Assembly (NCBI GenBank): GCA_041653595.1
Contig: JBAZFB010000003.1
Location: 64,346-128,345 of the forward strand
Source: Candidatus Omnitrophota bacterium
GTDB lineage: Bacteria > Omnitrophota > Gorgyraeia > Pluralincolimonadales > Pluralincolimonadaceae
DNA: 64,000 bases
Reading direction: 5' to 3'
In this document: positions 7,050 to 26,061 of the stretch, piece after piece
Position numbering within the stretch: the first letter of the stretch is position 1
How the letters are laid out: every line of letters begins with the position of its first letter
Made by a program: the position numbers and the translations under genes
The notes under the pieces: model-generated
What the model was told of the DNA's origin: nothing
Databases searched by the model: none
What the model saw: only the letters and a program-made list of their open reading frames with translations

Positions 7050-7050
7050 A

Positions 7051-8787: not shown

Positions 8788-8842
8788 CTTTCGGTAACTT
8801 ATAGGGTATATTTATACTATAGACGAGAGAGGAACTACAACT

Positions 8843-10111: not shown

Positions 10112-10583
10112 AATGGAAAAACGCAAAAGCGGGTTTACGATAATAGAGTTGATAGTCGTCATGACGATCATCCTTATATTGGCGGGCCTCATAACCGGCG
10201 CCGCGCAGAAGGCGAAGCAGCAGGCTATGATAGCCAAAGCCAGGTCGATGATAGCAGGCATCGAAACCGCGCTGGGGATGTTCCAGGCGGATACCGGGAT
10301 CTATCCCGCTTCCGCTAATTTGTATACGAACCTTGTCAGTTCCGCGACCGGCCTTACGACCGTCCAGGCGCAGAATTGGTCCGGGCCTTACATGAATTTC
10401 CAGACGAATGAAATAAATACCACCGCCGGCACTATACTCGACCCCTGGAACAGCGCCTACCATTATACTAACACCGGTTCGGCCTCGCACGGTTACGATC
10501 ATTACATTGATATCTGGTCCAACGGCCCTAATAAAGTGGACAATAGCGGCGCGGGCGACGATATAACCAACTGGAAAAGATAG
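10104..10583 (+). CDS. gspG: Major pseudopilin/type IV pilin-like protein (GspG-like), prepilin-type N-terminal methylation domain
   Basis: 'KSGFTIIELIVVMTIILILAGL' class III signal with G-1/F+1/E+5. Confidence 0.8.
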   Translation: MVKMEKRKSGFTIIELIVVMTIILILAGLITGAAQKAKQQAMIAKARSMIAGIETALGMFQADTGIYPASANLYTNLVSSATGLTTVQAQNWSGPYMNFQTNEINTTAGTILDPWNSAYHYTNTGSASHGYDHYIDIWSNGPNKVDNSGAGDDITNWKR

Positions 10584-10595
10584 CTCCTTAATATT

Positions 10596-10949
10596 ATGAG
10601 AAAAGGTTTCACGTTAATAGAGATAGTCATATCGCTCGCGATACTCGCCATAGGGCTGGTGGGCATATTGTCTCTTTTCCCGATAGGCTTTGACTCGGCG
10701 AGGCGCTCGGTGAATTCCACGCAGGTAGCGGTCTTTGCCAATAAGCACCTCGAAGAGCTGCGGAACACCGGATTTCCTTCTTTAGGCGTCACGAGCGGGG
10801 ACTTCTCCGACCCGTCTTATACGTGGACGCAGAGCGTCTCAACCGTAGACGCGATCGACGCATTAAGGCAGGTAGACCTGACGGTAAGCTGGCAATATAG
10901 GAACAGGGGTTATCAACAGGTATTCACGACCTATGTGGCGACCAGATAG
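10596..10949 (+). CDS. Minor pseudopilin (GspI-like), prepilin-type N-terminal domain
   Basis: 'KGFTLIEIVISLAILAIGL' prepilin motif with E+5; ~117 aa size typical of GspI. Confidence 0.6.
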   Translation: MRKGFTLIEIVISLAILAIGLVGILSLFPIGFDSARRSVNSTQVAVFANKHLEELRNTGFPSLGVTSGDFSDPSYTWTQSVSTVDAIDALRQVDLTVSWQYRNRGYQQVFTTYVATR

Positions 10950-11697
10950 ATATATAAGAAGGAATAGCTCCGGCCTGACCTTGGTCGAGATCCTCGTCGT
11001 GGCCGTCATCTTCTCCATCCTCGTCACCTCCCTGTTTACGGTCTTCAGGGGCGGGCTCGATTCCTGGCGCAAGGCCGAGACGATCCTCGATATGTACCAG
11101 AACGCGAGGTTCGCGCTCGACATAATGGAGCGCGAAATATCCTCCGCCTATCTTTACCAGGAGAGCGCCAACACCGCCTATTGGACTAAATTTGAAGGTT
11201 ATCTCTCCGCGTCAGGCCTAAAGACCGGCTCCGCAGGCGGCGAGATATTTTTCGTCGCGCCGATAGCGAATAATCCGGGCAATAAGCAGGACCTCTGCGA
11301 AGTCGGATATTGGCTCAGGAACGATAACCGCCTCATGCACCATTTCGAGTATTTCGACGGAAGCGTAGTGCCGGTCGCCTATGATTTTTCGAAGAAAGCC
11401 GACGGCTCCGGCGATACGGGCGCCTCGGATGCCGCCATCGCAAGTAACGTCACGGCGCTTACCTTTACCTATTATTACAGGGGTACCGCCGGCGCCGCGC
11501 CGGCCGCGACCGTTACCAGTTGGAATTCGGGCCTTGACGCGCTTACCGGCGCCACCGAGAATTACGATTCCGGCGGCAACAAACTGATACCCGACGGCCT
11601 GCCCGACGCGGTGGGGATATCCATAACGCTGCAGAGCAGGGACGGCACGCAGACAAAGACCTTCACGGATTTCATAAGGGTCGTAGGTGCGAGATGA
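10933..11697 (+). CDS. Minor pseudopilin (GspJ-like), prepilin-type N-terminal domain
   Basis: 'SGLTLVEILVVAVIFSIL' prepilin motif with E+5; long leader, start codon uncertain. Confidence 0.55.
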   Translation: MWRPDRYIRRNSSGLTLVEILVVAVIFSILVTSLFTVFRGGLDSWRKAETILDMYQNARFALDIMEREISSAYLYQESANTAYWTKFEGYLSASGLKTGSAGGEIFFVAPIANNPGNKQDLCEVGYWLRNDNRLMHHFEYFDGSVVPVAYDFSKKADGSGDTGASDAAIASNVTALTFTYYYRGTAGAAPAATVTSWNSGLDALTGATENYDSGGNKLIPDGLPDAVGISITLQSRDGTQTKTFTDFIRVVGAR

Positions 11698-14672
11698 AAG
11701 AGACTAGCCCTAAATACAAAAAGAAGAGAGGCGTAGCCCTCATAATCTCGGTGGGCATCCTGGCGCTCATCGCGATGATAGCCACGAGCTTCGCCATAAA
11801 CATGCAGCTCGAGTATAGGGCCGCGGCGAATTTTATGTATTACACCGTAGCCAAAGAGCTGTCCGGCGCGGGCCTTGATAAGACGATCGCCGATATCCGA
11901 GCTTTGGCGGCAAACAACAGTTACGACGACGTCATGGCTGTCATAAATGCGTCTCCTTACGCCAACCCTGGGACCGAGGTAAATTTCGCGGGAGGGAGCT
12001 ATCAGGTCTATGTGGAGAGGGAGGACCAGAAGATAAACATAAACACCCTCGATGAGACCGATTATCCGTGGATAGATGAGTTGAAAAGCAAGGGCCTTTC
12101 ATACGATGACATCGCGAAGATGATCAATTATCGCGTTCCGGAGACGGAGTATAGCAGTATCACCTCTGTATTGACCGCCACCGGCCCGCAGTCCTGTAAC
12201 AGCGGCACCGTCCAGAAGCACGGGCCTTACGCAACAGTCGAAGAATTGCGACTTGTCCTTAACGACGACATCAAATATAATGCAATAAAAAACTTCGTTA
12301 CCGTCTATGCCCCGGTGATACCGGGAGGGCTTACCGGTAAGTATTACTCCCAACCCGATAATACGGTGTGGGATAAAAACTCGATCCTGGGCCTTGGTAA
12401 TTTTTGCGGAAAAGTCGTGGAATTTCGCGCCCTTAAAGAGGCGAAGGACTCCGGTTCAGCTCCCTGGCCTCCTTCCAATACATTCCCGGGCGCCGACGGA
12501 GATTGGAACGGATGGAGCGAGGCGCACGACGCGGAATTTGCCGGGGGCTATATAGCCGCTGACTGGACGTGGCGGTCAGGATTGGATTATTTCGGCGCGG
12601 TATTCACCGGATATATATACATACCTCAGGACAAGGTGAACCAGGATATAACCTTCAAGATGCGCAGCGAGAACGGCTGCAGGCTTTTTATAGACGGGAC
12701 GAAATTGATCGAGGATTGGACCGACAGGAACATGGGCGGCTGGCCGTCAGATAATGTCCTCGTCTCTCCGGCTGTTACCTTCAGCCGCGCCGGCTGGCAC
12801 CCAATAAGGATCGAATACTACAACAAAGACAACCAGAACACGGTCCAGCTTAAATGGGACGCCTACGGTTCTGACGATTACGTTCCGGCCGAATACTTCG
12901 GATATTATCCTTCTTCTTATTACGGGGATATCGCGGTCGACTCGAACCCGGTGACGACGCCTAAGACATACAGGGCCGCCTCCAGGCTCGGGACGGATTA
13001 TAACTCGGCCGGTATCCTGAAGATAGTCTCTACAGGGAAGACGAAAAAGAACGGAGTCGTCGTCGCCGAAAAGAAGACGACCTCGGTCATACAGGTATTT
13101 AATACCCTTACCCAATCTACCCGGGCCGAGTTTTGGGCACCCTGGTTCTCTCTCTACAACAATTTCAGCGACGGGGAGGTAAGGAACGTGACTTGGCTCG
13201 ATTCGTGTCCGACCAGCCAGGACGGTTTCGACGGCAGCAAGATGAATTGGGAGGGAAGTTATCAGAAAACCCCCGATTCCGTCAAGCTTGGATACTGGGA
13301 CAACTTCAACGATGATATTGCCTACACCGCGATAATATTGAAGGGGGGATATGTAACGAAGTTATTCGGTATAGCGTGGTGGGATTGGGATGTTCACACA
13401 TTTCCCAGCACCCATGAACACTGGCTTCCTAGAGGAAGAATAGACGGTGAAGATGCAACTGCTATAAATTGGGACGGCGATTATGTGTGGCCCTGCACTT
13501 TCGGCGATTTTTCCGTCCCGGAAGGGTTCAAGGAAGATGGCATTAATGGCACCTATTGCCTCAGAATGGATGTACCGGGATATTATTACGATGGATGCAC
13601 GGCTGAGGAAAGGCAAGCCGAATTAAACAGTTATTACTACAAAGCAGACTCGCCATTGGGCTACGATATCTTCGCCAGGTCTTATGTCTATGACAACGGA
13701 CAGAAGCAGACATGGGACAGCAACTGGCAACGGCCTCCAAGCCAGCGCTTGGCTAATCCGGGATATCCCGACCATATTCCATCATTTTTGACGGGGTATC
13801 TCATCCTCAAGACCGATCCGCCGTATACAGCTGACCATCAGACAAAACCCGGGGACGTTTATTATACTTTTGTCCAAAACGGTACCGACTGGTTCGGTTC
13901 CTCCGACCTGGATGCGAGCGTATTATATTGTCCGGGCAAGACAGACTCGTCAAGCGGCGCCTATTATTCCTGGGATGAGGATGCGCAACAGACGCAGTAC
14001 TACATATTAGCGGCGATAGGGGTGGGAACCACCTATCAGGCTTATTATTCCTATACTACCGAGAGTGGTTCCGGTTGGGTCACCACGGGAGCATCCGGAA
14101 CCGGCAGCGCGTCCAAAGCAGGTGTCGTAGCGTTTAGGGCAAACAATATATATTATGTCGATCTCGACTTATTCTGGCAGGGGACCCCCCCCTACACCAA
14201 TGAAGCATTCGTCGATATGGTATACGACAGGACCGACGGGATAACCGATAATAACCCCAGATATATAGGCAGCACCAGCGAATGCGTGACCGACTTCGAC
14301 AATGTCAGGGTCATATATCCAAAGGGCTATATCGTATCTGCGTCGCTTATAGCTAAACCTCCTTTGGACAACTCCAATATAATATGGGATACGATAACGT
14401 GGAATGACGCGAATCCGAATCCGGCCGGTACCTCGATAACGATGTATGCCAGGGCGGCAGACAGCCTTTCCACAACCGATGACTTCTCGACTGAATATGC
14501 GAAGGGGGACTCGATATCATCCCTTTCAGGAGGCAGGTTCCAGTATAAGGCTTTATTGATCACGTCCGCGTTGAACCCTAATGACTATTCGGCCAGCAGC
14601 TCCACGCCTGTCCTGAAGGGCGTCACCGTGATGTACCACCGGCCGAAAGCCCGGGTATTCTACCAGCAGTAG
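11694..14672 (+). CDS. Giant GspK-like pseudopilin (992 aa) with internal PA14 domain
   Basis: N-terminal 'KRGVALIISVGILALIAMIATSF' hydrophobic segment lacking E+5 (GspK hallmark), 'KININTL' and HhH-like 'GPYATVEELRLVLN' GspK motifs; PA14-like block 'FTGYIYIPQ...FKMRSENGCRLFIDG...WHPIRIEYYN...VQLKW' around nt 12470-12880. Confidence 0.6.
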   Translation: MKETSPKYKKKRGVALIISVGILALIAMIATSFAINMQLEYRAAANFMYYTVAKELSGAGLDKTIADIRALAANNSYDDVMAVINASPYANPGTEVNFAGGSYQVYVEREDQKININTLDETDYPWIDELKSKGLSYDDIAKMINYRVPETEYSSITSVLTATGPQSCNSGTVQKHGPYATVEELRLVLNDDIKYNAIKNFVTVYAPVIPGGLTGKYYSQPDNTVWDKNSILGLGNFCGKVVEFRALKEAKDSGSAPWPPSNTFPGADGDWNGWSEAHDAEFAGGYIAADWTWRSGLDYFGAVFTGYIYIPQDKVNQDITFKMRSENGCRLFIDGTKLIEDWTDRNMGGWPSDNVLVSPAVTFSRAGWHPIRIEYYNKDNQNTVQLKWDAYGSDDYVPAEYFGYYPSSYYGDIAVDSNPVTTPKTYRAASRLGTDYNSAGILKIVSTGKTKKNGVVVAEKKTTSVIQVFNTLTQSTRAEFWAPWFSLYNNFSDGEVRNVTWLDSCPTSQDGFDGSKMNWEGSYQKTPDSVKLGYWDNFNDDIAYTAIILKGGYVTKLFGIAWWDWDVHTFPSTHEHWLPRGRIDGEDATAINWDGDYVWPCTFGDFSVPEGFKEDGINGTYCLRMDVPGYYYDGCTAEERQAELNSYYYKADSPLGYDIFARSYVYDNGQKQTWDSNWQRPPSQRLANPGYPDHIPSFLTGYLILKTDPPYTADHQTKPGDVYYTFVQNGTDWFGSSDLDASVLYCPGKTDSSSGAYYSWDEDAQQTQYYILAAIGVGTTYQAYYSYTTESGSGWVTTGASGTGSASKAGVVAFRANNIYYVDLDLFWQGTPPYTNEAFVDMVYDRTDGITDNNPRYIGSTSECVTDFDNVRVIYPKGYIVSASLIAKPPLDNSNIIWDTITWNDANPNPAGTSITMYARAADSLSTTDDFSTEYAKGDSISSLSGGRFQYKALLITSALNPNDYSASSSTPVLKGVTVMYHRPKARVFYQQ

Positions 14673-14682
14673 GGATAACAAT

Positions 14683-15555
14683 ATGAAAAAAATAATCGCG
14701 TTCTCCGTCATCCTGTTTTTAAGCTTATGCCTGCGGGCCTCTGCCGCTCCCGGGGATAAATACGCGATAAGGGTGCCGGGGGACTGTAAGACCATCAGGG
14801 AAGCGTGCGAAAAGTCCTTTCCGGGAGATACCATATACATAGGCGCAGGCGAATACACGGAGAAAGAGGGATTTACCGTTAAGAGTAATATCAAGCTTGT
14901 CGGGCAGGGCGCAGACAAGACCCTTATTAAACTGGGGAAGAGCGGATTATCCATAATCTCGACGCGCGGTAGCGTGAATAATGTCGCCATAAAAGACCTC
15001 TCCATTGAGGTGAACGGGCAGCCCTTAAGAGTGGGCGGCGTCGACAGTTTTCTTTTAAAGGACTGTGTCTTAATAAGCAGGAACCTGTCTACCTGCATAG
15101 AGGTCAGCGGCGTAAAGAACGCGCAGATATTGAACTGCAATATAGTGAACGCAAGTTACGGCCTGATGCTTTGGGGCGGGCCGATCGAGCTTGCCGTAAG
15201 GAATTCGGTCTTTTACAACAATAAGGTCGGTATCTGCTCCGCCAAACTTCCGCCGCAGGGGAATCCCCGGGACCTGCCTAAAGAATATCTGGAAGAATAT
15301 TATAATAAGCCGCGCGAGGACATCAACCTTACGCTTGCCTATAACCTTTTTTATAACGTAAAGGATTTTATTGATTGCCGGAAAGGGGAGAAGGACGTAT
15401 TGCTTGATCCCAGGTTCGCGAATGCCGCGAAAGACGATTTTCACCTTAGGGGAGATTCCCCTTGTGTTGATGGCGGCGACCCGGACGCCAAGTATAACGA
15501 CCCAGACGGCTCAAGAAACGACATCGGGGCTCTTCCATTTGCCGGAAAGAAATAA
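14683..15555 (+). CDS. Secreted right-handed parallel beta-helix repeat protein (pectin-lyase-fold)
   Basis: Signal peptide 'MKKIIAFSVILFLSLCLRASA'; repetitive 'N..I.D..I' beta-helix rungs; C-terminal 'DFHLRGDSPCVDGGDP' region common in beta-helix secreted proteins. Confidence 0.6.
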   Translation: MKKIIAFSVILFLSLCLRASAAPGDKYAIRVPGDCKTIREACEKSFPGDTIYIGAGEYTEKEGFTVKSNIKLVGQGADKTLIKLGKSGLSIISTRGSVNNVAIKDLSIEVNGQPLRVGGVDSFLLKDCVLISRNLSTCIEVSGVKNAQILNCNIVNASYGLMLWGGPIELAVRNSVFYNNKVGICSAKLPPQGNPRDLPKEYLEEYYNKPREDINLTLAYNLFYNVKDFIDCRKGEKDVLLDPRFANAAKDDFHLRGDSPCVDGGDPDAKYNDPDGSRNDIGALPFAGKK

Positions 15556-15557
15556 AA

Positions 15558-15584
15558 TTGCCGGAAGAATTATTTTTTTATAAT
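15558..15584 (+). promoter_or_regulatory. Candidate promoter upstream of second GspK-like gene (TTGCCG-15-TATAAT)
   Basis: -35-like TTGCCG 15558-15563 and TATAAT 15579-15584 within AT-rich 55-bp gap; spacer 15 nt is suboptimal. Confidence 0.3.
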
Positions 15585-15610
15585 AGCTACCCTCGCGGGC
15601 ATACGAGAAA

Positions 15611-18097
15611 ATGAAAATAAGAATAAGAAAAAATAACAAGGGTATCGCTCTCATAGTGACGGTCGGCGTCCTCGCGATGATGCTGATAATCGGGACGTCT
15701 TTCACCATCAATATGATGGCCGATCGCAGGTCGTCGGTGAATATGGCGATGGCGGCGCAGGCCAGGGCCGCGGCAGAAGCGGGATTGAATATCGCTATCG
15801 TCTCGGCGAGGAACCTGGCCGTCAGCGATTTCAACGGCGTGCCTGCCGCTACCATGAGCGGCTCTCTCGGGAACGTGGGGAGAGGGAATACCGCCGCCTA
15901 TTCCGTCAATATAACCGATACCGCGAGCCAGCTCAACGTAAACGACACAAATCCCGGGCTGGAAGATATGCTCGAAAGCCTTGTTGCCATACTGGGAAGC
16001 CCTCTTCAGGCCGGCGACGGGACCGCGATCATTTCATACCGCGCGACCCTCACTGACGGAGTTTATATCACGAAGGAACAGGTTATCAACGCGTTTTCCG
16101 GCGCAACCTCCGTAAAACAGGGCAAGTTCAACAAGATAGCGGAATATATAACGGTAAATGGTTATATTGACGAGAACAGCGAGGATCCTACGGCCTCGTC
16201 TTTAACCGGCCTGGATAATCCTGATTCGACTTACCAGCGCAAGGCGCCGGTAAATATAAATATCACCGACGCTAAAATTCTGAGGGCTGTTTTAGCATCT
16301 GTAATTACGCCGACGGATCCTGCCACGTTAGCCGGTGATATTATTACAAGAAGGAACGCGAATTTCTTTACCAGTTGGAATGATTTTGACGGTTTTATAG
16401 ACGGGCTTGGTTACCTGACCGCCGCTGAAAAAATAAAGATAAAAAATAACGCGAACCCGAACAAAGTAAAAGTCGATAACGCGGGAGCCTCTCTCTCTTA
16501 TACAACCGATTTCTGCTTCCATCCCGGCGGCGTTTACGAGATAACATCTACCGGGACGGCCGGGGCGGCACAGAAACGGATAACCGCTCCGGTGCGGATA
16601 TACGATGTCATAAATTACACGACGAAAGAACAATTCAGGGGGAATACTTACACAACCGCTTACGTAAACGACGGCACTATGCCGGCTTTTAAGAACGTGA
16701 ACTGGCTTAACAGCTGTCCGGTTATCTCAAGTTACGACCCTGGATTGACGGTCGCTACGCCCGACTATAGCGCTAACGCCGTCGCCAATTCCCTTAAACT
16801 GGGTTTCTGGGATAACTTCGACGAAGATAATGATAATGTCAATAAAGTGGGCTGGAGCTGGTCTAATTGGGCAGATTCCCTGGCCAACGATATAGCCATC
16901 ACCGATGTCAATCCAGTAGATCCCAGCCGTAGTAATCAGCCTGACTTAAGGGACGGTGATAATGAATTAAGCGATACCGCATACGTTGGAGAGACAGCAT
17001 TAGCTCATATAGACCTGCAGGGCAGTCAAAGCGGCCAATGGCATTGCGGGCAGGAATTTTCCTTCAGGGTCTATTGTAACATACTTAAAAATCCTCCAAG
17101 TCAGGTATACTACCCTCCTTTTGAAAATTTTTATAGCGCTACTGACCGGTGGGAAGGTTATGAGGATACAGAGCAGATCGACTTTGTTTCCGCGGGGCCT
17201 ACGGGCAAGTTGTATATCAATAATTTCCGCTGTATGTACTATGGGTCCTACGGGTATCAACAAAGCATTGACGGAATTTCCGGCATGGCTCCGCCCGACG
17301 ATTTTGCGGATTCCTTGCTGAGATTAACTTTCCCCGGCGGAGGCGGAGACCATTATATGCATTTAAACGGTTTGTATAATGGGATAGGAGGGTTGTCTGC
17401 GCCCGGTACGTTAAAACCGGCGGATGCGAACAGGGTCGTTCCTGTTAATGCTGCTTTCAAATTAATTGTGCGCGGGTCGGGGGCCAATAATTATCAGGTT
17501 CATACGGCAATCTCTCCTACCGGGATAGCTTATCACGAATGGGATTCAGGCGACGGAGGGAACTGGGGCTCGTGGTGGTGGCAGATCCATTATCTTACCT
17601 ACTACGCCTATGATGGATTCTATCATCAACTTGTAGATACGGGGGAAACTGATAGATATAATTATGTGCGGCACGACGCGGGGAATCAATTTATCTACAC
17701 CGACTGGTTTTTGAGGTTGATAAATCATCCGTCGACTACGATGGGACGTTACGCTCTGTTTGACGATGTCCGCCTCATCCCCGACCAGGGCTATTACATC
17801 TCTCCCGCGTCCGCCACGGCCGGCCCCGCTCGCTTCGGTACCGCGTCGTGGACGTTGACCATTCCGCCGGGCGCAGCCACGAACGAAAGGGCCACGGTGG
17901 AAATTTCCGGGGACGGGGGGACCAACTATAGTCCCGTCGGTATTAACAGTGGGGTGAGTATCACCCCTTCGACGAGCATACGCTTCAAAGTCACTTTATT
18001 GTCGGACGACCCGCAGCATTTACAGACGCCTGTCCTTGAGGACATTACCCTTACCCGTTTGCCAAAGGCGGCGGTCTTATATTGCAAATATGAGTAA
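15611..18097 (+). CDS. Giant GspK-like pseudopilin paralog (828 aa)
   Basis: N-terminus 'NKGIALIVTVGVLAMMLIIGTSF' without E+5, 'QLNVNDT' motif; shares 'NV.WL.SCP...KLG.WDNF.DD' and C-terminal 'TPVL' blocks with the 11694-14672 protein. Confidence 0.55.
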   Translation: MKIRIRKNNKGIALIVTVGVLAMMLIIGTSFTINMMADRRSSVNMAMAAQARAAAEAGLNIAIVSARNLAVSDFNGVPAATMSGSLGNVGRGNTAAYSVNITDTASQLNVNDTNPGLEDMLESLVAILGSPLQAGDGTAIISYRATLTDGVYITKEQVINAFSGATSVKQGKFNKIAEYITVNGYIDENSEDPTASSLTGLDNPDSTYQRKAPVNINITDAKILRAVLASVITPTDPATLAGDIITRRNANFFTSWNDFDGFIDGLGYLTAAEKIKIKNNANPNKVKVDNAGASLSYTTDFCFHPGGVYEITSTGTAGAAQKRITAPVRIYDVINYTTKEQFRGNTYTTAYVNDGTMPAFKNVNWLNSCPVISSYDPGLTVATPDYSANAVANSLKLGFWDNFDEDNDNVNKVGWSWSNWADSLANDIAITDVNPVDPSRSNQPDLRDGDNELSDTAYVGETALAHIDLQGSQSGQWHCGQEFSFRVYCNILKNPPSQVYYPPFENFYSATDRWEGYEDTEQIDFVSAGPTGKLYINNFRCMYYGSYGYQQSIDGISGMAPPDDFADSLLRLTFPGGGGDHYMHLNGLYNGIGGLSAPGTLKPADANRVVPVNAAFKLIVRGSGANNYQVHTAISPTGIAYHEWDSGDGGNWGSWWWQIHYLTYYAYDGFYHQLVDTGETDRYNYVRHDAGNQFIYTDWFLRLINHPSTTMGRYALFDDVRLIPDQGYYISPASATAGPARFGTASWTLTIPPGAATNERATVEISGDGGTNYSPVGINSGVSITPSTSIRFKVTLLSDDPQHLQTPVLEDITLTRLPKAAVLYCKYE

Positions 18098-18116
18098 AAG
18101 GAGAAAAAAGAATAAA

Positions 18117-19196
18117 ATGAGACAGGTGTTTCCCGTATTTTTTTTGATGTTCTTTTTGGCCGCGGCTTTTCCGGCCACGGCAGCCGATGTTAACCGGACG
18201 GAAGCGGCCAATGAACCCGCAGGCCATGCGGACGCCTTCGCCGAATTCAGTAAAAGATTTTCGGAGATAAAGGCAGGCGATGCCGAGGCTTATTATAATT
18301 TGGCGGTGTTCTGTATCGATAACGATCTCCCTGGACAGGCGGAATACCTGCTCGGGGAAGCGGCAAAAACCCCCGACTTTGAAAAAAAGGCGAAAAGGCT
18401 TCTGGAAGTGCTTACCGGCGAACCGGACAAAGTTTTGTATGAAGCCGCGTTCAAACATTATGAATCGGGATATCTCGCGGAGGCCAAAACAGAAGTCGAA
18501 ATGCTGAAAATCGTTTATCCCCAAAGCAATTATACTCGTAAAGCCAGGTTACTTTTGAGAAATATAAACAGTGAGGTGGTTGATAAACCCTATCTTTTGG
18601 TGAACTCCGCTGATCCCAGTAAAATTATCGCTTCCTTGAGTCAGAGGGCGGAAAAAGAGAAACGTAATGTGGAGGATCTGAAAAAAGAGTATTTTACGGA
18701 TATCCTCAAGAAGGCGGAGTATTTCGCTGACACCCTGGTGGCCAAAGCACCTTCCGATGAGAAAAAGGAAGAATATTTGTTCTATGCGATAAAATGCGCG
18801 GAAGAAGTATACAGATTGTCGGATGATGCGGAACTTAAGAGCAAGGCCGAAGACATGAGAAGCAAGATCACTAAACGGGTATTTACCGAGCGACCGGTAT
18901 CTGCAAATTTGAAAAATATAGACATGCATTATGAGAATTTATATCTGGTCAAAGACAGCGGCCTTATCGAGGATACTTGCGGTAAATATATTAAGGAAGG
19001 CGAGGCATATTTAAAGAAAGCCCGGGAGGCCTCGGGCGACGGGAAAATAAGCGATCTCGTCAGCGCTTATAAATGTTTTTCGTTTGCTAATGCCTATACC
19101 AAGTCCGAGAAGCTGAAAGAGGAGACTTTTAGAAAGATGAAGCTTATTAGCCTCGAAAAAAGGAAGGAGATAAGCAAGAAGAAAACGTCAAATTAG
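18117..19196 (+). CDS. Secreted hypothetical protein, helical/TPR-like
   Basis: Signal peptide 'MRQVFPVFFLMFFLAAAFPATAA' after AAAGGAG RBS; Lys/Glu-rich helical repeats; ORF-track start 18036 would overlap upstream gene so 18117 preferred. Confidence 0.5.
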   Translation: MRQVFPVFFLMFFLAAAFPATAADVNRTEAANEPAGHADAFAEFSKRFSEIKAGDAEAYYNLAVFCIDNDLPGQAEYLLGEAAKTPDFEKKAKRLLEVLTGEPDKVLYEAAFKHYESGYLAEAKTEVEMLKIVYPQSNYTRKARLLLRNINSEVVDKPYLLVNSADPSKIIASLSQRAEKEKRNVEDLKKEYFTDILKKAEYFADTLVAKAPSDEKKEEYLFYAIKCAEEVYRLSDDAELKSKAEDMRSKITKRVFTERPVSANLKNIDMHYENLYLVKDSGLIEDTCGKYIKEGEAYLKKAREASGDGKISDLVSAYKCFSFANAYTKSEKLKEETFRKMKLISLEKRKEISKKKTSN

Positions 19197-19274: not shown

Positions 19275-20924
19275 ATGGGAAAACGTGCTCTAGGGATCGA
19301 TATAGGCGCGGGCTCGGTAAAACTCGTAGAGCTGGAAAAGACGGCCGAAGGTATTCAGCTCATCCGGGCGAAATTTTTTGACTTGACCCAATATGCCGAC
19401 CAGGAAAAAAGGGACACCCTTATAAGGGAAGGCATAGAGGGGTTGTTGAGAACAGAAAAGATAAAGAGCGGCAGGCTCGCGCTCTCCCTCTCGGGCCAGT
19501 CGGTATTCATCCGCTTCCTCAAGCTCCCCAAGATCCAGCAAGGCAAGATAGACAAGATAATAAAATACGAAGCGCAGCAGCAGATCCCTTTCCCCCTCGA
19601 TAAGATAAGCTGGGACCACCAGATCTTCCGCTCCGGCGCGGGCCCGGAAGAGGACGTCCTTTTCGTCGCCGCGAAAAAAGAGATTGTCGAAACTACGCTT
19701 TCGCACGTAGCGAGGACCAACCTGGACATAGAGTTCGTCGATGTCAGCCCTCTGGCCCTCCTTAATTCCATAACTTATAATGAGCCCCTCGGCAAGGGGC
19801 TGATCCTTGATATCGGCGCCAAGGCGACCAATCTTATCGTCATATCGGACAAGGGGTTCTGGGTCCGTTCAATACTTATCGCCGGCGACGAGATGACCCA
19901 TGCGATCGCCTCAAAGTTAAATATACCTTTCGACAAGGCGGAGGAGCTTAAGCGCAAAGAGGGGATGGTGGTCGCGTCAGACAGCCTTGTTCCCTCGAAC
20001 ATCACCCCGGAGGGCAAAGACCTCGTTAATGCCCTGAACCCGGTCGTCTCCGACCTGATATCTTCGATCGTCCAGTCGATGGAATTTTACAAGACCAAAC
20101 ATGCCCGCGATACCGCCTTCAACGAGATCATATTATCGGGCGGCGGCTCAAAGCTCAAGGGCATAGAGGATTTCCTGGCGAAGGGGCTTGGCATGCAGAT
20201 AAGGCGCGCCAACCTGGGCCAGAAGATAAAATGCCCGTCCAACCTCAGGGTCGATATAGATTTTCAGACGCGCTTCGGCTCTTCGATCGGCCTGGCCCTG
20301 CGCCTGCTCCAGAGGTGCCCGACCAATATAGACCTGTTGCCGGCCGAGAGGAAAGAGGAAAGGGATTTCAAAAAAGAAAAATTCTGGATAATCTCCGCGG
20401 GCCTCCTTATTGCCGTAATACCGCTCACGATAGGGTATAATATCTGGTTCCAGACGTCGACCCTGAGGAAGGAAGTGGCCTTCCTGGATTCGCTTTTGTC
20501 GGATTACGAGAACATCAACAAGGGAATAGCCAAGCTTAAGGAAGATATCAAGAACAGCGAGGCCAGGCTGGAACCCTTTGAAAATCTGGCCATAAAGAAA
20601 AGCCTCTCTCTTGAGGCCATATTGGAGATAAGGAAGCTCCTGCCCGAAGAGACCTGGCTGACGTCGGTGGCCAAGGACAAGGACCTTTTCTCGGTTGAGG
20701 GCAGGACGACCTCGAGCCTCCTGACCATCAACGTTTTCAAGAACAGGCTCGCATCCTCGCCGTTATTCGATTCGGTAGAGATAATATACGCGAGCCTGCC
20801 CCGCCAGACCGAAGAGGGCGCGGGACAATTCAGGGATTTTTCCATAAAGTTCAGGTTCAAGGGGACCGGCGCGGCTGCGGCGGCCCCGAAGGGCGAGAAG
20901 GACGAAACGAAAGGCAAGAAATAG
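19275..20924 (+). CDS. PilM-like actin-fold ATPase fused to a PilN/GspL-like membrane/periplasmic segment
   Basis: 'LGIDIGAGSVKLVELEK' PilM N-terminus with actin-like fold, then TM 'FWIISAGLLIAVIPLTIGYNIWF' and coiled-coil/periplasmic tail; 549 aa (PilM alone is ~350). Confidence 0.7.
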   Translation: MGKRALGIDIGAGSVKLVELEKTAEGIQLIRAKFFDLTQYADQEKRDTLIREGIEGLLRTEKIKSGRLALSLSGQSVFIRFLKLPKIQQGKIDKIIKYEAQQQIPFPLDKISWDHQIFRSGAGPEEDVLFVAAKKEIVETTLSHVARTNLDIEFVDVSPLALLNSITYNEPLGKGLILDIGAKATNLIVISDKGFWVRSILIAGDEMTHAIASKLNIPFDKAEELKRKEGMVVASDSLVPSNITPEGKDLVNALNPVVSDLISSIVQSMEFYKTKHARDTAFNEIILSGGGSKLKGIEDFLAKGLGMQIRRANLGQKIKCPSNLRVDIDFQTRFGSSIGLALRLLQRCPTNIDLLPAERKEERDFKKEKFWIISAGLLIAVIPLTIGYNIWFQTSTLRKEVAFLDSLLSDYENINKGIAKLKEDIKNSEARLEPFENLAIKKSLSLEAILEIRKLLPEETWLTSVAKDKDLFSVEGRTTSSLLTINVFKNRLASSPLFDSVEIIYASLPRQTEEGAGQFRDFSIKFRFKGTGAAAAAPKGEKDETKGKK

Positions 20925-20927
20925 AAG

Positions 20928-21689
20928 ATGCCAAAAGGCATGAACGAGTCATTGACGACTAAGATATCCCTGGGAGCGGTCATACTGGTTTCATTTCTTT
21001 TTTTAGGGATAACCGTGTATGACAGGTTGAGGATCGAAGGGGCTGTCGTGCAGAAGCAGGAGCAGCTCAAGGTCTATAAAAACCAGGGCCTCGGTTTACT
21101 GAGCAGCGAAAAGAACCGCCTTGAGAGGCAGCTCAAGGCCATGCGGGAAGCCGACAAGGAGATAAGCGGCATGCTCTTCTCTAAACCGTCCTCCCGGATG
21201 GTGAAGGAGGTCGGGGATCCCCTTAAATTCAAGGAGGAGTTATACAAGGTCCAGAATAAGATAAAAGAGGACGGCGCTTCCATAAATTTCCAATTCCCGT
21301 TCTGGCTGGGTTTCGAGAGGTACGAGCACGATATACCGAATCCGGCGGACCTTCCGTTCAGGGTAAAGCAGCTCGACATAATAAACGAGATCGGCAGCCT
21401 TGCCCTGGCTTCGAAGGTGCCGGAGATCTCGACGATCGAATTCCTCGAGATCAAGAAAATAATGGCCGACAACAAGGAAATCCTTTTCATGGAATTTCCT
21501 GTCAGGGTGGTCCTTAAGTGCGGTAACGAGAGCCTGGTCAATTTTATGTATAAGCTGAGCGTCGCGGATGTGCCTTTGAGGATCGATTCGTTTAAAATAA
21601 AAGTTTCCGCAGACGAGAGCGCGGCCGAGGGCGACATGACCGGAGAGTTGGTCATAGTCGCTGCCGTATTGCCCGCGGAGAAGATATGA
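20928..21689 (+). CDS. PilO/GspM-like bitopic membrane protein
   Basis: N-terminal TM helix, coiled-coil, then ferredoxin-like periplasmic domain pattern; position after PilM/N-like gene. Confidence 0.45.
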   Translation: MPKGMNESLTTKISLGAVILVSFLFLGITVYDRLRIEGAVVQKQEQLKVYKNQGLGLLSSEKNRLERQLKAMREADKEISGMLFSKPSSRMVKEVGDPLKFKEELYKVQNKIKEDGASINFQFPFWLGFERYEHDIPNPADLPFRVKQLDIINEIGSLALASKVPEISTIEFLEIKKIMADNKEILFMEFPVRVVLKCGNESLVNFMYKLSVADVPLRIDSFKIKVSADESAAEGDMTGELVIVAAVLPAEKI

Positions 21690-22366
21690 AAGGCGCATCC
21701 CGAATAATAGCCGCAGCAGCATTCATTCTATGGATATTGGCGATGTGGAAATCGTCTTCGGTTTTTGAATCAAAGCAAGTCCCGTTCCGGCAGGAGGAGG
21801 AAGGCGGGGGAGACGTCGTGCCCGGTAAGGAGGGGACCGCCGCCCTGCCAAACTCTTTTTCGCATGTGGAAGTATTGCTCAAATCCCCTTATGCCGTCTC
21901 GAGATACAAGCCCCTTCTCGATGAGAACATGTTCATAAAGCCCGAACCCCCGGTCAAGGTCTTATCGCCTGTAGACCTGACGTTAGTGTCCGTCACGGCC
22001 GTACCCCTGCCTTTTATGTATAAAGGTTTTATCGAGGTGTCGGACGGGACCATAATAGGCCAGATCAACTGGTCCGGTAAGACGTATTTCGTAAAGAGGG
22101 GGCAAAAGGTCAAAGACTACAAAGTAACGGAGATCAACAGCAAGATTGTCAAGATGGAAAACAAGGATGGCCAGGTTACCCTCGAGTTCAAGAAGCCCGG
22201 GAAGAGCAAGGAATTGGTCGCAAAACTGCACGATTCAATGAATAATAAGGATATCGAGGCAAAGAAGGGGGACACGATCGGAGAGTATAAAGTTCTTGAC
22301 ATAAAAACTGATTCTGTGATATTATATGGCCAAAATAAAGAGTGGGTTATAACAAAGGGGAGATGA
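21686..22366 (+). CDS. PilP/GspC-like periplasmic protein with duplicated beta-domain
   Basis: N-terminal TM/signal; two similar beta-rich segments ('KTYFVKRGQKVKDYKVTEINSKIVKME' / 'KKGDTIGEYKVLDIKTDSVILYG') resembling the PilP HR domain; gene order. Confidence 0.4.
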   Translation: MKGASRIIAAAAFILWILAMWKSSSVFESKQVPFRQEEEGGGDVVPGKEGTAALPNSFSHVEVLLKSPYAVSRYKPLLDENMFIKPEPPVKVLSPVDLTLVSVTAVPLPFMYKGFIEVSDGTIIGQINWSGKTYFVKRGQKVKDYKVTEINSKIVKMENKDGQVTLEFKKPGKSKELVAKLHDSMNNKDIEAKKGDTIGEYKVLDIKTDSVILYGQNKEWVITKGR

Positions 22367-22371
22367 TATAA

Positions 22372-23499
22372 ATGAGTATGACCAATGAGGTTAAAAGAAC
22401 AGCAGGTAAGTTCTTTGTTTGCATCTTTTTGGCTTTTGATTCGTTCTTTATTATCTCATTAGGAAATGCTTTTTGCGCCAGGGTTTACGCCGCCTCCGAT
22501 GCTGATATAGCCAACGACTCGGTCGAGGCGAGGATAATAGCCCAGGACCTGGCCAAAGAGAAAAAAGTCGAACAAAAATACCTCATTAAAGACCTCTTCG
22601 ATCAAGCCAAGAGGGAATACGACGCTAAGAATTACGAAACGGCGCAGCATATCTTCGAGAGGATAGTCCAGCTGGACCCCAAGAATAAACAGGCCGTCCA
22701 TTATGTCGAGTTGTGCAAAGACGGCATAGTCAAGACCGTCCCCGATACGATAACCGGCTCTATGATAAAGCGCGGCAAAGCGAATTACGCGAGCAAAGAA
22801 TATTCCGCCGCGGTAGGTGATTTTGAGAGCGCGCTCGCCGCGAACCCCAATGATGCCGAAGCCCGGGATTGGCTGATCAAGGCGAGGCAGGCCGAGGGGT
22901 TGGACGCGAGGGAAAAGACTACCAAGGAAGAGCGCAAGTATGTCGTAAAGGACAGGCACGTAACGAACGAGGAGAAGGATACATCCGAGCAGAAGGCCTT
23001 GCTCGACGTGGATAGAGGATGGCTGCCCCCGGAGAAGACCGGCCGGGAAGAGTTGCAGGTCGAAGAGGTGATCCCGGAGTCGGAGAGGATCGAAGCGGCC
23101 GCAAGGGCGGCGCTCGAGGAGAAGATGGCGAAGGTTGTCGTTCCGGCCATATCGGTTACCGACGCCGACGTCCAGGACCTTATCCGCCAGTTGACCGAGA
23201 TGACGGGAGTAACTATCGTCATCGACGAGAAGGCGCTGGCCGCCCTCACCAGAGAGCAGCCGCTGAAGATCACGATCAGCACCGCTGCCCCTATGCCGTT
23301 GCTCGATATCCTGGGTATCGCGTTCAAGACTACGCAACTCGCTTATAAGGTCGAGACGAATTACGTTTATGTATCAAGCAGAGAGAATATAATGAGAGAA
23401 GGCCTTGTCACGAGGACTTACAAACTCAAATACGGCGAACGCAAGACTCGCGCGGTCAAATTAACAGAGTTTGAAAACAAGGCGGCAGACGCGAAATGA
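22372..23499 (+). CDS. TPR-repeat protein with C-terminal secretin-N (N0/STN-like) domain
   Basis: TPR-like 'AKNYETAQHIFERIVQLDPKNKQA', 'SKEYSAAVGDFESALAANPNDAEA'; C-terminal 'VTDADVQDLIRQLTEMTGVTIVIDE...LDILGIAFKTTQLAYKVETNYVYVS' resembles secretin N0/STN domain. Confidence 0.5.
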   Translation: MSMTNEVKRTAGKFFVCIFLAFDSFFIISLGNAFCARVYAASDADIANDSVEARIIAQDLAKEKKVEQKYLIKDLFDQAKREYDAKNYETAQHIFERIVQLDPKNKQAVHYVELCKDGIVKTVPDTITGSMIKRGKANYASKEYSAAVGDFESALAANPNDAEARDWLIKARQAEGLDAREKTTKEERKYVVKDRHVTNEEKDTSEQKALLDVDRGWLPPEKTGREELQVEEVIPESERIEAAARAALEEKMAKVVVPAISVTDADVQDLIRQLTEMTGVTIVIDEKALAALTREQPLKITISTAAPMPLLDILGIAFKTTQLAYKVETNYVYVSSRENIMREGLVTRTYKLKYGERKTRAVKLTEFENKAADAK

Positions 23500-24617
23500 A
23501 GAAAAAGTTTATCGCGGGGGCGGTAATAATTTGTTTGGCGATCCCCCAGATCGCGCTCTTTGCGGCCGATGACGGCAGCCTCAATATCAAAGATTATCTC
23601 GAGCAAAGCCTGCCTGCCCAGGATGGGAGAAAGATAACCTATAATGATGGCACGAGGCTCCTGACCGTTACCGATACGAAAGACAACCAGGAACTCATCA
23701 GGAGTTTAATAAAGGGGTATGAGGTCGGTCCCAAGCAGGTGATGATCGAGACCAGGTTCGTGGAAGTGGCCGTCACCGACCTGGACGAGCTGGGTATAGA
23801 ATGGGATTTCTTCCATCCCGGCAACGCCAACGACAAAAACAGCGGATTTACCATAGGCGCTCCTGTGGGTACACCGTATCAGGGCCTGCGCTGGAATAAT
23901 GATCTGACCTCGACGTTCCCCGTCGTGGGGAATTTCGCCGGCCAGGTCATGATGTTCAAAGTTTTGGCCAACGGTGAGGCCTATATAGCGAATCTCAGAT
24001 TTTTAGAGCAACAGGGGAAGGCCAATCTCCTTTCCGCTCCCAAGGTTACCGCGATCTCCGGCCAGATGGCGAACATCCAGGTGGTAAGGACATATCCTTA
24101 CGTATCTGATTTTACGCTCGAGAACATAGGGACGGCTGAGTTCCCTATCTGGAGTTACAAATTGTCCCTTGCCGAAAAACCGGTAGGCATATTCCTTGAA
24201 GCGACCCCTTATGTCACCGAAGGGTCGAATACCATAACTTTAGACCTGCATCCGGAGGTGAGCGTCCTGCGGTCGCAAGTGGCCATCTCTAACCTAAGTA
24301 CGAGCGGCGAGACGGGGCAGCTGGGTAATGTAACCTCCGCGACCAACGTAAAACTCATACCGGCTGACCTCGGTTGGCCTGTTGTGGACGTGAGGACCAC
24401 CCAGACGAGCGTTTCGGTAGACAGCGGGGCGACGATAGTGCTGGGCGGGCTTATCAAGGACAGCGAGACGATAACGCACAGGAAGATCCCGGTCCTCGGA
24501 GACATACCTTTGTTAGGGCAGGCTTTCCGGTATGATTACAAAAGCCAGACCAAGACGAACCTGCTTATATTTATTACGGCGAGCATTATCGACGCGAAAG
24601 GCGAGGTCATAAGATGA
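23496..24617 (+). CDS. Minimal secretin (GspD/PilQ family; N3-like + secretin domain), paralog 1
   Basis: Signal peptide; N3-like 'QVMIETRFVEVAVTDLDELGIEW'; secretin core 'RTTQTSVSVDSGATIVLGGLI...KIPVLGDIPLLGQAFR...KTNLLIFITASII'. Confidence 0.85.
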   Translation: MKKKFIAGAVIICLAIPQIALFAADDGSLNIKDYLEQSLPAQDGRKITYNDGTRLLTVTDTKDNQELIRSLIKGYEVGPKQVMIETRFVEVAVTDLDELGIEWDFFHPGNANDKNSGFTIGAPVGTPYQGLRWNNDLTSTFPVVGNFAGQVMMFKVLANGEAYIANLRFLEQQGKANLLSAPKVTAISGQMANIQVVRTYPYVSDFTLENIGTAEFPIWSYKLSLAEKPVGIFLEATPYVTEGSNTITLDLHPEVSVLRSQVAISNLSTSGETGQLGNVTSATNVKLIPADLGWPVVDVRTTQTSVSVDSGATIVLGGLIKDSETITHRKIPVLGDIPLLGQAFRYDYKSQTKTNLLIFITASIIDAKGEVIR

Positions 24618-25732
24618 AGAATAAATACGGCGTTTCTTTGCCGCAGGTGATCTTGTTCTCGGCGGCGATCCTCCTTTCGTTGGCGTCCGGGCGGGTTTTT
24701 GCGGCGGATGCGCCTGCCGCGGAGATGTCAGCCGGCGGAGAGGCGGCAGGCATCGAGCAATATCTGCAGGACGCCCTTCCTGAGAACCCGGAAAGGAAGG
24801 TCGTTTATGACTCATTGACCGGCGTTCTTACCGTTACCGATACCCCGACTAACCAGGCGATGGCCAAGGACCTGATAAGGTTATGGGATACCGGGTCCAC
24901 GCAGGTAAGGATACAGGCGAGGTTTGTGGAGATCCAGGTCACTGATATAGAGGAGTTGGGGATCGAATGGCAGGTCTTTAAGGCGCAAAGATATCCCATG
25001 GATAAGAACGGCCACTGGAGCAATTTCGGGACCAGCCTTTCCAGCGGGTCGCTGAGCGAAGACCAGACTGCTGCCGGTTTCTTCGGAACGGCAAACGAGA
25101 CTTCGGGTCTGGGTTTGACTATCGGAAAGTTCACGAACGCGGGGGATATATATAGGGCGTATATAAAGGCGCTTATCGAGCAGGGGAAAGCCAGTCTCTT
25201 GTCTTCTCCTTCGGTGACCACTATCTCCGGCCAGATGGCGAACATCCAGGTGGCTAACATAGTCCCTTACGCCTCGGATTTCACGAGGACTAACATCGGC
25301 ACTGCCGATTTCCCGGTCATGGTCGAGATATACAAAGTGGCGGAAAAGGTGACCGGCATATCGCTTGAGGTGACGCCCTCGGTAGGAGGCGACAGTAAGG
25401 TGGTCACGATGGATATACATCCCGAGGTCAGCATCCTGGTCGACCAGATCCCGATCTCTTCTTCGGACGATTTCCCGGCAAACTTAGGATACCCGGTCAT
25501 CGACACGAGGACCACGCAGACATCGGTGGTCGTCAAGAGCGGAGAGACGGTCGTACTGGGCGGATTAATAAGGGAAGATGAAAGAACGACGAAAAGGAAG
25601 ATTCCTGTCCTGGGAGATATACCTCTCCTTGGCCATCTCTTCACGACCGACCACACCGACAAGTCAAAGAAGAACCTGTTGATTTTCCTGACAGCCACGA
25701 TATTAGACTCAAGAGGAGAACCGGTGCTATGA
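24614..25732 (+). CDS. Minimal secretin (GspD/PilQ family), paralog 2
   Basis: Same architecture: 'QVRIQARFVEIQVTDIEELGIEW', 'RTTQTSVVVKSGETVVLGGLI...KIPVLGDIPLLGHLF...KKNLLIFLTATIL'. Confidence 0.85.
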   Translation: MKNKYGVSLPQVILFSAAILLSLASGRVFAADAPAAEMSAGGEAAGIEQYLQDALPENPERKVVYDSLTGVLTVTDTPTNQAMAKDLIRLWDTGSTQVRIQARFVEIQVTDIEELGIEWQVFKAQRYPMDKNGHWSNFGTSLSSGSLSEDQTAAGFFGTANETSGLGLTIGKFTNAGDIYRAYIKALIEQGKASLLSSPSVTTISGQMANIQVANIVPYASDFTRTNIGTADFPVMVEIYKVAEKVTGISLEVTPSVGGDSKVVTMDIHPEVSILVDQIPISSSDDFPANLGYPVIDTRTTQTSVVVKSGETVVLGGLIREDERTTKRKIPVLGDIPLLGHLFTTDHTDKSKKNLLIFLTATILDSRGEPVL

Positions 25733-26061
25733 AACGCGGAATATTGTTGATATCCGTTCTTTTATGCGCTATTATCTTGTCGTCAGCTGCGATGGCCCAG
25801 TACCTTCCCGCTACTTCTTCTGCGACTGCAAAGAGCGCCAAACAGAAGGACATTGTCCTCACTACCGCGGACATAAAAGATTCCTATAAGGTCATAGGGA
25901 TCGTCTCTATCCGCGGCGGCGAAGTGAACCTCGACGCCTTAAACAGCAAGCTTAAGGACGCGGGAAAGGAATTGGGGGCCGATGCCGTGATAGGCATACA
26001 GTATTTCACCTACAGCGGCTACGTATATGCCTATGGGACGGCCGTAAAGATCAAGGAATAG
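25729..26061 (+). CDS. Small secreted/lipoprotein-like protein, possibly secretin-associated (pilotin-like?)
   Basis: Signal peptide 'MKRGILLISVLLCAIILSSAAMA'; 110 aa; last gene of the secretion cluster; weak resemblance to YbjQ-like beta-domain ('ELGADAVIGIQY...YAYGTAVKI'). Confidence 0.4.
   Translation: MKRGILLISVLLCAIILSSAAMAQYLPATSSATAKSAKQKDIVLTTADIKDSYKVIGIVSIRGGEVNLDALNSKLKDAGKELGADAVIGIQYFTYSGYVYAYGTAVKIKE

Follow-up and report, generated by a model that had tools for sequence, protein, structure and literature searches.

A secretin divided within its N-domain: a candidate split pilus pore of a TPR-N0 protein and two tandem short secretins in Omnitrophota

How might a secretin be coupled to its inner-membrane platform when the coupling domain is encoded by another gene? 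This question is raised by three overlapping open reading frames (ORFs) at positions 22372–25732 of a 64-kb stretch of Candidatus Omnitrophota DNA (contig JBAZFB010000003.1, positions 64,346–128,345), the whole of which we call the window and in which every ORF of note lies on the + strand, as do all features described below. The ORFs encode T, an exported adaptor of 375 aa with tetratricopeptide repeats (TPRs) and an N0 fold (22372–23499), and two short secretins, A (373 aa, 23496–24617) and B (372 aa, 24614–25732). Lengths and coordinates agree exactly with the initial annotation of this DNA, which proposed a pair of minimal secretins with the N0-like domain supplied on a separate protein. 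We found that the gene break falls within a single domain, Secretin_N, of which the first strand, beta1, is on T and the remainder, from alpha1 onwards, is on A and B. With moderate confidence, we interpret the locus as a split secretin module of the type IV pilus/type II secretion system (T2SS)-like kind known from the Planctomycetes–Verrucomicrobia–Chlamydiae (PVC) group, in which T would re-join A and B in Omnitrophota.

Both A and B belong to the secretin superfamily. Pfam Secretin (PF00263, cut-off 27.5 bits) matched A with 134.1 bits (E = 4.8e-39) and B with 147.6 bits (E = 3.3e-43), and the core motifs VLGGLI and IPxLGDIPLLG are kept in the two proteins. Each starts with a signal peptide and continues with a truncated N-domain (alpha1-beta2-beta3-alpha2, residues ~29–80, in A; residues ~47–97, after an acidic/Gly-rich linker, in B) and the secretin core (residues 169–366 and 186–364, respectively). 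The description of these proteins as a signal peptide, one N-domain and a core was borne out except that the N-domain is incomplete and lacks its first beta strand. In the whole proteins, Secretin_N gave one sub-threshold match each (23.3 bits in A and 24.7 bits in B against a cut-off of 28.2) that covered only profile positions 14–68/69, and neither chain carries a complete Secretin_N before the core. No STN/N0 or additional N-domain was found in A or B by Pfam, NCBIfam or PDB sequence searches, and their PDB sequence matches to GspD and PilQ cover N3 and the secretin domain only, the GspD alignments starting at N3 (GspD residues ~280–295). The initial annotation was right that N0 and further N-domains are missing; its yardstick was GspD, and the proper comparator is the PVC-type PilQ, Amuc_1098. 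In place of an N0/STN domain at the N-terminus of the secretin polypeptide, we found one on T.

T is 100% identical to an NCBI protein from a Candidatus Omnitrophota metagenome-assembled genome (MAG) that is annotated as hypothetical. Its long hydrophobic N-terminus, a signal or an anchor, leads into TPR helices and a long helix; a disordered linker then connects these to an N0 fold and, at the C-terminus, a beta1 strand. The TPR region (residues ~50–157, 22519–22842) was matched by Pfam TPR_2, TPR_19 and TPR_14, with TPR_2 reaching 31.3 bits, above its cut-off; AlphaFold predicted helices at residues 50–157 and Foldseek returned TPR matches. For the N0/STN-like domain (residues ~255–336, 23134–23379), Pfam STN gave E = 1e-3 with the whole protein and 5e-5 with the domain alone, and matches to STN and type_II_gspD_N0 were obtained with 16/16 T orthologs, all of them sub-threshold. 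A T-ortholog profile searched against PDB hit the N0 domain of the GspD protein XcpQ of P. aeruginosa (E = 8e-4). The AlphaFold model of T (predicted local distance difference test score, pLDDT, 71 overall and ~80 over residues 261–336) matched the N0 domain of N. meningitidis PilQ in Foldseek (4ar0, E = 9.7e-4), the sole non-TPR match of four below E = 1e-3. We regard the N0 similarity of T as weak but consistent across methods, and it upholds the proposal that an N0/STN-like domain resides on the separate upstream TPR protein. The domain searches recommended with that proposal placed Secretin and TPR above and Secretin_N and STN below their cut-offs. Of the two results named as counting against it, a lack of N0 similarity in 22372–23499 or full N0-N2 domains in the secretins, neither was found.

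The label "pilotin-like" for the TPR part could not be kept. T has the above-threshold TPR match expected of TPR-lipoprotein pilotins, but in a 35-sequence ortholog alignment read by eye the cysteine towards the end of its hydrophobic segment is not conserved and has no lipobox context. A conserved A-Y-A signal-peptidase-I-like site is present in the same alignment. We rejected an assignment of T to the TPR lipoprotein pilotins (PilF/PilW/Tgl, TadD), which would need the invariant lipobox cysteine, and in relatives the TPR part belongs to the secretin chain itself. Stand-alone T proteins are ~345–378 aa long; grouped at 90% identity they make up ~60 clusters, the most distant of which are 30% identical to the query.

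Secretin_N domains, such as N1-N3 of GspD, are beta-alpha-beta-beta-alpha units. In the ortholog alignment, N0 of T is followed by a short linker, by a sequence that hardly varies, LVTRTYKLKYG (residues 345–355, 23404–23436), which corresponds to beta1 of Secretin_N, and by a charged tail of ~20 residues. The motif, [LM][VI]T[RK]TY[KR]LK[YF][GP], is near-invariant though the orthologs are otherwise 30–55% identical. In all 40 A and B proteins the signal peptide is directly followed by a helix that is conserved at the mature N-terminus, (I/V)-K-(D/E)-Y-L-E-x-x-L-P, and a beta1 strand before this first helix is absent in 40/40.

We re-joined the two parts and scored them against Pfam Secretin_N (gathering cut-off 28.2 bits), with a shuffled tail as control. 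Alone, the N-domains of A and B scored 26.9 and 27.4 bits over profile positions 14–69 and 16–69. Placing the 16-residue T tail in front raised the scores to 33.4 and 33.9 bits and extended both matches to positions 1–69, whereas the shuffled tail gave 26.2 and 26.8 bits over positions 14–69 and 16–69. Re-joining in two distant loci behaved alike (from 29.2 to 34.4 and from 28.9 to 33.6 bits). In A and B, Secretin_N is complete and above its gathering cut-off only once the T strand is added, and the break falls inside the domain. This argues for a physical re-assembly of T with the secretin, whose parts probably have to snap back together.

The tail behaved differently in structure models depending on its partner. 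When T was modelled alone with AlphaFold, the tail was a low-confidence helix. In a chimera of T(236–375) and A(25–373) (pLDDT 83.9, predicted TM score (pTM) 0.64), it formed a strand with pLDDT ~90, followed by a low-confidence linker, alpha-beta-beta-alpha and the barrel. The alignment for this model was unpaired and contained whole T proteins, secretins and single-chain homologs. Foldseek aligned the chimera to PilQ and GspD over ~500 columns (E = 3e-19 to 1e-16), with V. cholerae PilQ (6w6m, E = 3e-19) as the top match, and the N-terminal half of the chimera matched N0-N1 crystal structures.

We then looked at how the same domains are arranged in relatives. Homologs of the secretins numbered more than 2300 in our searches. 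For N0, we searched exhaustively with a profile of that part of T, which retrieved 244 representative clusters at E <= 1e-3, and classes were counted on the best 150. N0 and secretin occur in one chain in 29 of these 150 (645–1045 aa, plus one 479-aa partial). In 31 of the 150, the N0 protein stands alone and its N0/beta1 match ends <=30 residues from the C-terminus; most of these 31 have a beta1-type motif 10–30 residues from the end. In most of the ten single-chain members scanned, Pfam identified TPR (with AMIN as well in one), STN/N0, Secretin_N from about profile position 10–15 and Secretin. Their order is colinear with T followed by A: N0, LxTRxYxLxxG, a linker of ~3–90 residues, tIkDvLe..., N-domain and secretin core. 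The two pieces are contiguous in compact single-chain relatives, P0259 being one example (LVTETFSLSGGVSDMEEILKSVIP). A different architecture, with at least two N0/STN-like repeats and no secretin domain, was seen in 39 of the best 150 clusters (P0197, P0213, P0208, P0201 and others), and some of the multi-repeat proteins reach 1,400–1,700 aa with at least four repeats.

Single chains also occupy the same genomic slot. In locus L026, from an Omnitrophota MAG, one 707-aa chain is found in the order PilM/N, Amuc_1100-like, secretin, polA, glgA, coaE, and L028 encodes one 893-aa AMIN-TPR-N0-N-secretin chain in the corresponding position between the PilM/N genes and polA-coaE. In the window and 20 related loci, TPR, N0, N-domain and secretin are not in one polypeptide and are divided between T and A/B. 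The order PilM/N, Amuc_1100-like, a protein of ~225–250 aa, T, A, B and a small exported protein, Y, was found in 20/20 independent loci with complete T-A-B, across which T identity falls to 30–35%. A tree built on secretin cores placed A and B in one joint clade (100/100 bootstraps) that sits amid single-chain forms. The presence of single-chain TPR-N0-N-secretins in relatives, including Omnitrophota with the chain in the same slot, makes fission plus duplication the most parsimonious history: judged from these comparisons, T-A-B most likely arose from a single-chain ancestor by fission and by duplication of the pore half. In L028, polA is itself present as two genes (9763–12333), one for a 287-aa 5'-3' exonuclease and one for a 531-aa polymerase, which is another split beside a pilus locus.

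The duplication is not recent. A and B are 55% identical in DNA and 43–48% identical in protein within a genome. Across loci, the A|B bipartition was recovered in 195/200 bootstraps, with the two halves reciprocally monophyletic and their branching order largely matching, and orthologs of A are on average 60% identical, those of B 57%. The paralogs show indels in the region from the N-domain to the core, and A has 18 inserted residues ahead of the LGWP motif. We excluded a recent A/B duplication on the strength of the DNA identity and the bootstrap split. The A|B split, the identity within each clade and the retention of the core motifs in both indicate that the duplication is old and that both copies are needed, and by the same sequence criteria A and B are both under purifying selection. 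In the recommended check on conservation of the pair, both secretins were present in 20/20 complete loci.

A stretch of 31 nt, encoding ISGQMANIQV and located within the GQMANIQ motif, is shared by A (24054–24084) and B (25223–25253). The identity is exact, as had been noted, but its reading as a sign of duplication or gene conversion needs to be narrowed: with paralogs this old it does not point to a recent duplication, and the run is at most a micro-conversion tract. Runs of 14–24 identical nt are found inside the same motif in eight other loci. A permutation that preserved the amino-acid alignment and the rate of codon identity for each residue gave P ~0.007 for 10 identical codons in a row. 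The paralogs of locus L002 (11061–13402) have a 48-nt exact identity in a different place, the N-domain (TGLLTITDTPSNHKLI), and the corresponding 15-codon run had P ~1e-4. It is likely that short tracts have now and then been converted between the tandem paralogs, at sites that vary.

Tandem duplication was also seen without fission. L027 (4996–9163) encodes two full-length TPR-N0-N-secretins of 671 and 720 aa that are 52% identical and lie just upstream of polA-coaE-rho. The two are sisters in 88/100 bootstraps, and this is an independent duplication in which each copy has its own N0.

The closest described system is the Amuc_1098–1101 cluster of Akkermansia muciniphila (NF042912, NF045709, NF038287; Ottman et al. 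2016, PMC4960237). Amuc_1098, the Akkermansia PilQ, has been described as having an N-terminal BamD/pilotin-like TPR domain and a C-terminal secretin domain, and was located to the outer membrane by immuno-electron microscopy (PMC4960237). The gene order is shared (PilM-N fusion, Amuc_1100-like gene, small protein, secretin), and so is the domain set of TPR, N0, one N-domain and secretin core; because Amuc_1098 is a TPR-N0-N-secretin, T together with A (or B) holds exactly that set. The difference is in the packaging. Amuc_1098 is one polypeptide of 907 residues (PMC4960237), whereas here T and the secretin are separate, the secretin half is doubled and a small fourth gene is added. On the Amuc_1098 model (805 positions), the N0-containing C-terminal part of T aligns to 210–370, and A and B align to the C-terminal secretin part (best stretches 661–803 and 725–803). 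T, A and B scored 34.3, 155.9 and 130.8 bits, respectively, with the equivalog model NF042912 against its cut-off of 750, and are related to Amuc_1098 without being equivalogs.

Type IVa pilus PilQ (N. meningitidis 4ar0/4av2, P. aeruginosa 6ve2, V. cholerae 6w6m) has N0, a single N-domain and the core and lacks an S-domain, as here, and provided the best structural matches, 4ar0 for N0 of T and 6w6m for the chimera; the Omnitrophota module differs in having TPR in place of AMIN domains and N0 on another polypeptide. The T4aP PilQ model TIGR02515 scored 134.5 (A) and 158.2 (B) bits against a cut-off of 284. T2SS GspD (3oss, 6hcg, 5wq7) has the secretin core and gate motifs in common with A and B and an N0 that is the dock for an inner-membrane homology region (HR)-domain protein. 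Unlike A and B, GspD combines N0-N1-N2-N3 in a single chain; an S-domain with a pilotin is usual. TIGR02517 (T2SS GspD) was the top NCBIfam model for A and B, at 161.4 and 177.1 bits against 351. In the operon described here, a PilM-PilN fusion replaces recognisable GspL/GspM and the similarity to GspC is weak. Small secretins of ~400 aa with one or no N3, as in A and B, are known from the Tad system (RcpA with TadD; 8odn; PMC10499894) and from phage (pIV; 7ofh). In Tad, a separate TPR protein is required for secretin assembly (PMC10499894). However, TadD is a lipoprotein pilotin on the barrel exterior and lacks N0, unlike T, and RcpA has its own VirB9-like N-domain, unlike A and B. PDB sequence similarity of the secretins was E = 1e-24 for GspD, 2e-10 for RcpA and 4e-9 for pIV. 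We rejected a Tad-type system, as the operon contains no Tad genes and has GspE-type ATPases with MshEN, a GspF-type platform, GspG-like pilins and PilM/N instead.

We would place A and B in the secretin superfamily as a distinct split subtype, with scores below the curated GspD, PilQ, MshL and Amuc_1098 cut-offs. TPR, N0, Secretin_N and the secretin core are known already, and their single-chain arrangement is that of the described PVC-type PilQ. What is new is that two exported polypeptides share out a secretin that is cut inside a domain, that the secretin pair is obligate and ancient, and that Y is appended. Our search of the literature on Omnitrophota/PVC secretins, type IV pili and heteromeric secretins found no account of split or tandem secretins for this group.

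The T-A-B(-Y) genes close a type IV pilus/T2SS-like operon that is related to the Akkermansia Amuc_1098–1101 cluster. Adjacent genes overlap by 4 nt, the stop and start codons sharing ATGA, at the T/A, A/B and B/Y junctions in the window, and the housekeeping genes polA, glgA, coaE and rho are located downstream. This translational coupling, together with the strict co-occurrence, argues that T, A, B and Y belong to a single assembly, as subunits or as partners. The earlier idea of a modular pore built from three polypeptides holds in that they form one module (adjacent in 20/20 loci, with ATGA overlaps); the break inside Secretin_N had been missed. Y (110 aa, 25729–26061) is an exported protein that adjoins B in 20/20 split loci examined. 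PDB and Pfam searches returned weak YbjQ/YdgH/selenium-binding-like similarity only. A Y-like gene does not follow the single-chain secretins of L026, L027 or L028, and Y is possibly a fourth subunit or an assembly factor.

Upstream of T, the neighbourhood is of the Amuc_1098 type, with a PilM-N fusion and an Amuc_1100-like gene. The PilM-PilN fusion (Amuc_1101-like, 19275–20924) matched PilM_2 (E = 2.6e-34), PilN (E = 6e-7) and Amuc_1101_fam (E = 3.4e-80), the latter with 270 bits and so below its cut-off of 650. It is followed by a 253-aa Amuc_1100-like/PilO-GspM-like protein (20928–21689), for which the NCBIfam match to Amuc_1100_fam is weak in the window, as is a hint of GspM similarity; the Pfam Amuc_1100 family is recorded for its orthologs. 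Between this gene and T lies a 226-aa bitopic protein with beta-rich repeats (21686–22366), a candidate, if weak, PilP/GspC-HR-like partner for N0. It matched the NCBIfam models pilP_fam and GspC_delta at E ~1e-3 to 1e-4, well under their cut-offs, and a PDB profile search gave no match; its position is kept across related loci.

Taken together, these arrangements suggest the following model. T, A, B and Y would be exported separately, and A and/or B would multimerise to form a gated outer-membrane barrel. The secretin N-domain, whose sheet of three strands is incomplete, would receive the C-terminal strand of T in trans, so that a ring of N0 (and TPR) domains is hung under the pore. Coupling of N0 to GspC-HR/PilP is established (PMC10499894). 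By analogy with GspD-N0/GspC and PilQ-N0/PilP, N0 of T would dock on a PilP/GspC-like HR domain, that of the 226-aa protein, in the PilM/N/O platform, and pilus assembly would be aligned with the pore. A and B would be non-redundant, most simply as co-subunits of one ring and otherwise as two pores with one adaptor. In its strongest form, the model is a naturally split and obligately hetero-oligomeric secretin in which A and B alternate in or share a ring, the N0 ring is held in trans by strand complementation and Y is a fourth subunit; we put this forward only tentatively.

Several observations weigh against a re-joined module. Each line of N0 evidence is sub-threshold or near E = 1e-3, and the PilP-like assignment of the 226-aa protein is weak. 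The chimera alignment held single-chain homologs, which means that the completeness of the modelled N-domain is in part transferred by homology, and pairing of the T strand with the A/B sheet, seen directly in no model, is inferred. There is one T strand for two secretin paralogs, and a 1:1:1 complementation cannot serve both. The N-terminus of T is unusually conserved and could be a membrane anchor, signal-peptide cleavage having been judged by eye. A PolA tree with midpoint rooting does not place L026, with its fused secretin, clearly apart from the split loci, and so did not confirm the polarity at the level of organisms. On this side of the balance one may ask if T and the secretins re-assemble at all. 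A and B could be self-sufficient. T would then act independently, as a periplasmic accessory or in assembly; its tail would be left over from the fission, and any contacts, through TPR or N0, would be transient. Phage pIV and RcpA are working short secretins, TPR proteins serve as secretin assembly factors in type IV pili and Tad (PMC10499894; PMC4960237), and the T tail is of low confidence in the T-alone model. Yet a vestige would drift, and the tail motif is near-invariant among orthologs at 30–55% identity. Moreover, stand-alone N0 proteins with N0/beta1 near the C-terminus make up 31 of the best 150 clusters, neither A nor B ever has a beta1 of its own, and T lacks a conserved lipobox. 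We consider independence of T unlikely.

If T does re-join the secretins, A and B might still form two pores, each a homo-oligomeric ring with a different job or growth condition (pilus extrusion as opposed to protein secretion or DNA uptake), that share T and the platform. All PDB/Foldseek structure matches are single-species rings and, to our knowledge, all secretin rings solved so far are homo-oligomers. The operon encodes two PilB/GspE-type ATPases, which might go with two pores, the N-domain-to-core indels and the 18-residue insertion in A set the two secretins apart, and the single-chain tandem paralogs of L027 arose independently with their own TPR and N0 per copy. However, the ATGA overlaps suggest equimolar co-production, A and B are never apart in the 20 complete loci, a single N0 adaptor gene serves both secretins and a second set of platform genes is absent. 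Two pores are possible, and we hold this to be as doubtful as the mixed ring. An artefact or decay, in which the layout would reflect a frameshift, a faulty assembly or the decay of a long secretin into a pseudogene and B would be a recent, converted tandem copy, has very little to recommend it. The 31-nt identity, the 48-nt identity between the L002 paralogs and the origin of the data in MAGs are what it could draw on. The three-gene layout recurs in 20 independent assemblies and ~60 protein clusters, every secretin has its own start codon and signal peptide, and the 55% DNA identity, the 195/200 split and purifying selection on both copies (within-clade identity 60% for A and 57% for B) all speak against it. 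A frameshift or pseudogene origin is ruled out by the conservation across loci, and the probability that we assign to artefact or decay as a whole is close to negligible.

We know of no secretin studied so far that is other than a homo-oligomer of one chain with its own N0. If the strongest form of our model, the obligately hetero-oligomeric one, is true, this would be the first multi-polypeptide secretin and a natural proof that the pore and the platform-coupling ring are separable. A natural split that parts the pore from the coupling domain would make it possible to dissect how the N0 ring is recruited and ordered and whether the barrel needs an N-domain to assemble. From a cut within a beta-alpha-beta-beta-alpha domain one would expect a defined protein-protein lock, and the strictly kept pair, like the tandem duplication in L027, raises the possibility of mixed secretin rings. 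There is also a consequence for annotation: with the Omnitrophota genes labelled "hypothetical", "TPR protein" or "GspD", the pilus machine seems to be without an N0-bearing secretin. Omnitrophota are ultrasmall and possibly host-dependent, and surface filaments are thought to be important to them.

The upstream part of the operon (5340–19196) contains two GspE/PilB-type ATPases with MshEN, PilC/GspF, a GspG-like major pilin, minor pilins, and giant PA14 and GspK/PilX-like proteins. The ATPases (5340–8787) are 569 and 578 aa long and each has an N-terminal MshEN domain, a domain of the cyclic di-GMP-binding type. No PilT-like ATPase is encoded in the window operon; L002 has one of 358 aa between its two ATPases. 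The neighbours of the pilin genes at 11694–18097 comprise a 992-aa PA14-domain protein, a 290-aa beta-helix protein and an 828-aa protein with a GspK/PilX-like N-terminus, and the very large ones are possibly giant minor pilins or tip adhesins. At 2514–3411, a 177-aa fusion of a bactofilin domain and an HTH_17 DNA-binding domain, an unusual pairing, is followed by an overlapping HTH_17/MerR ORF. Over the whole window (1–64000), the credible genes are all on one strand, GC skew is positive in each 2-kb bin and cumulative skew rises monotonically, which is consistent with a long leading-strand stretch and an extreme gene-strand bias.

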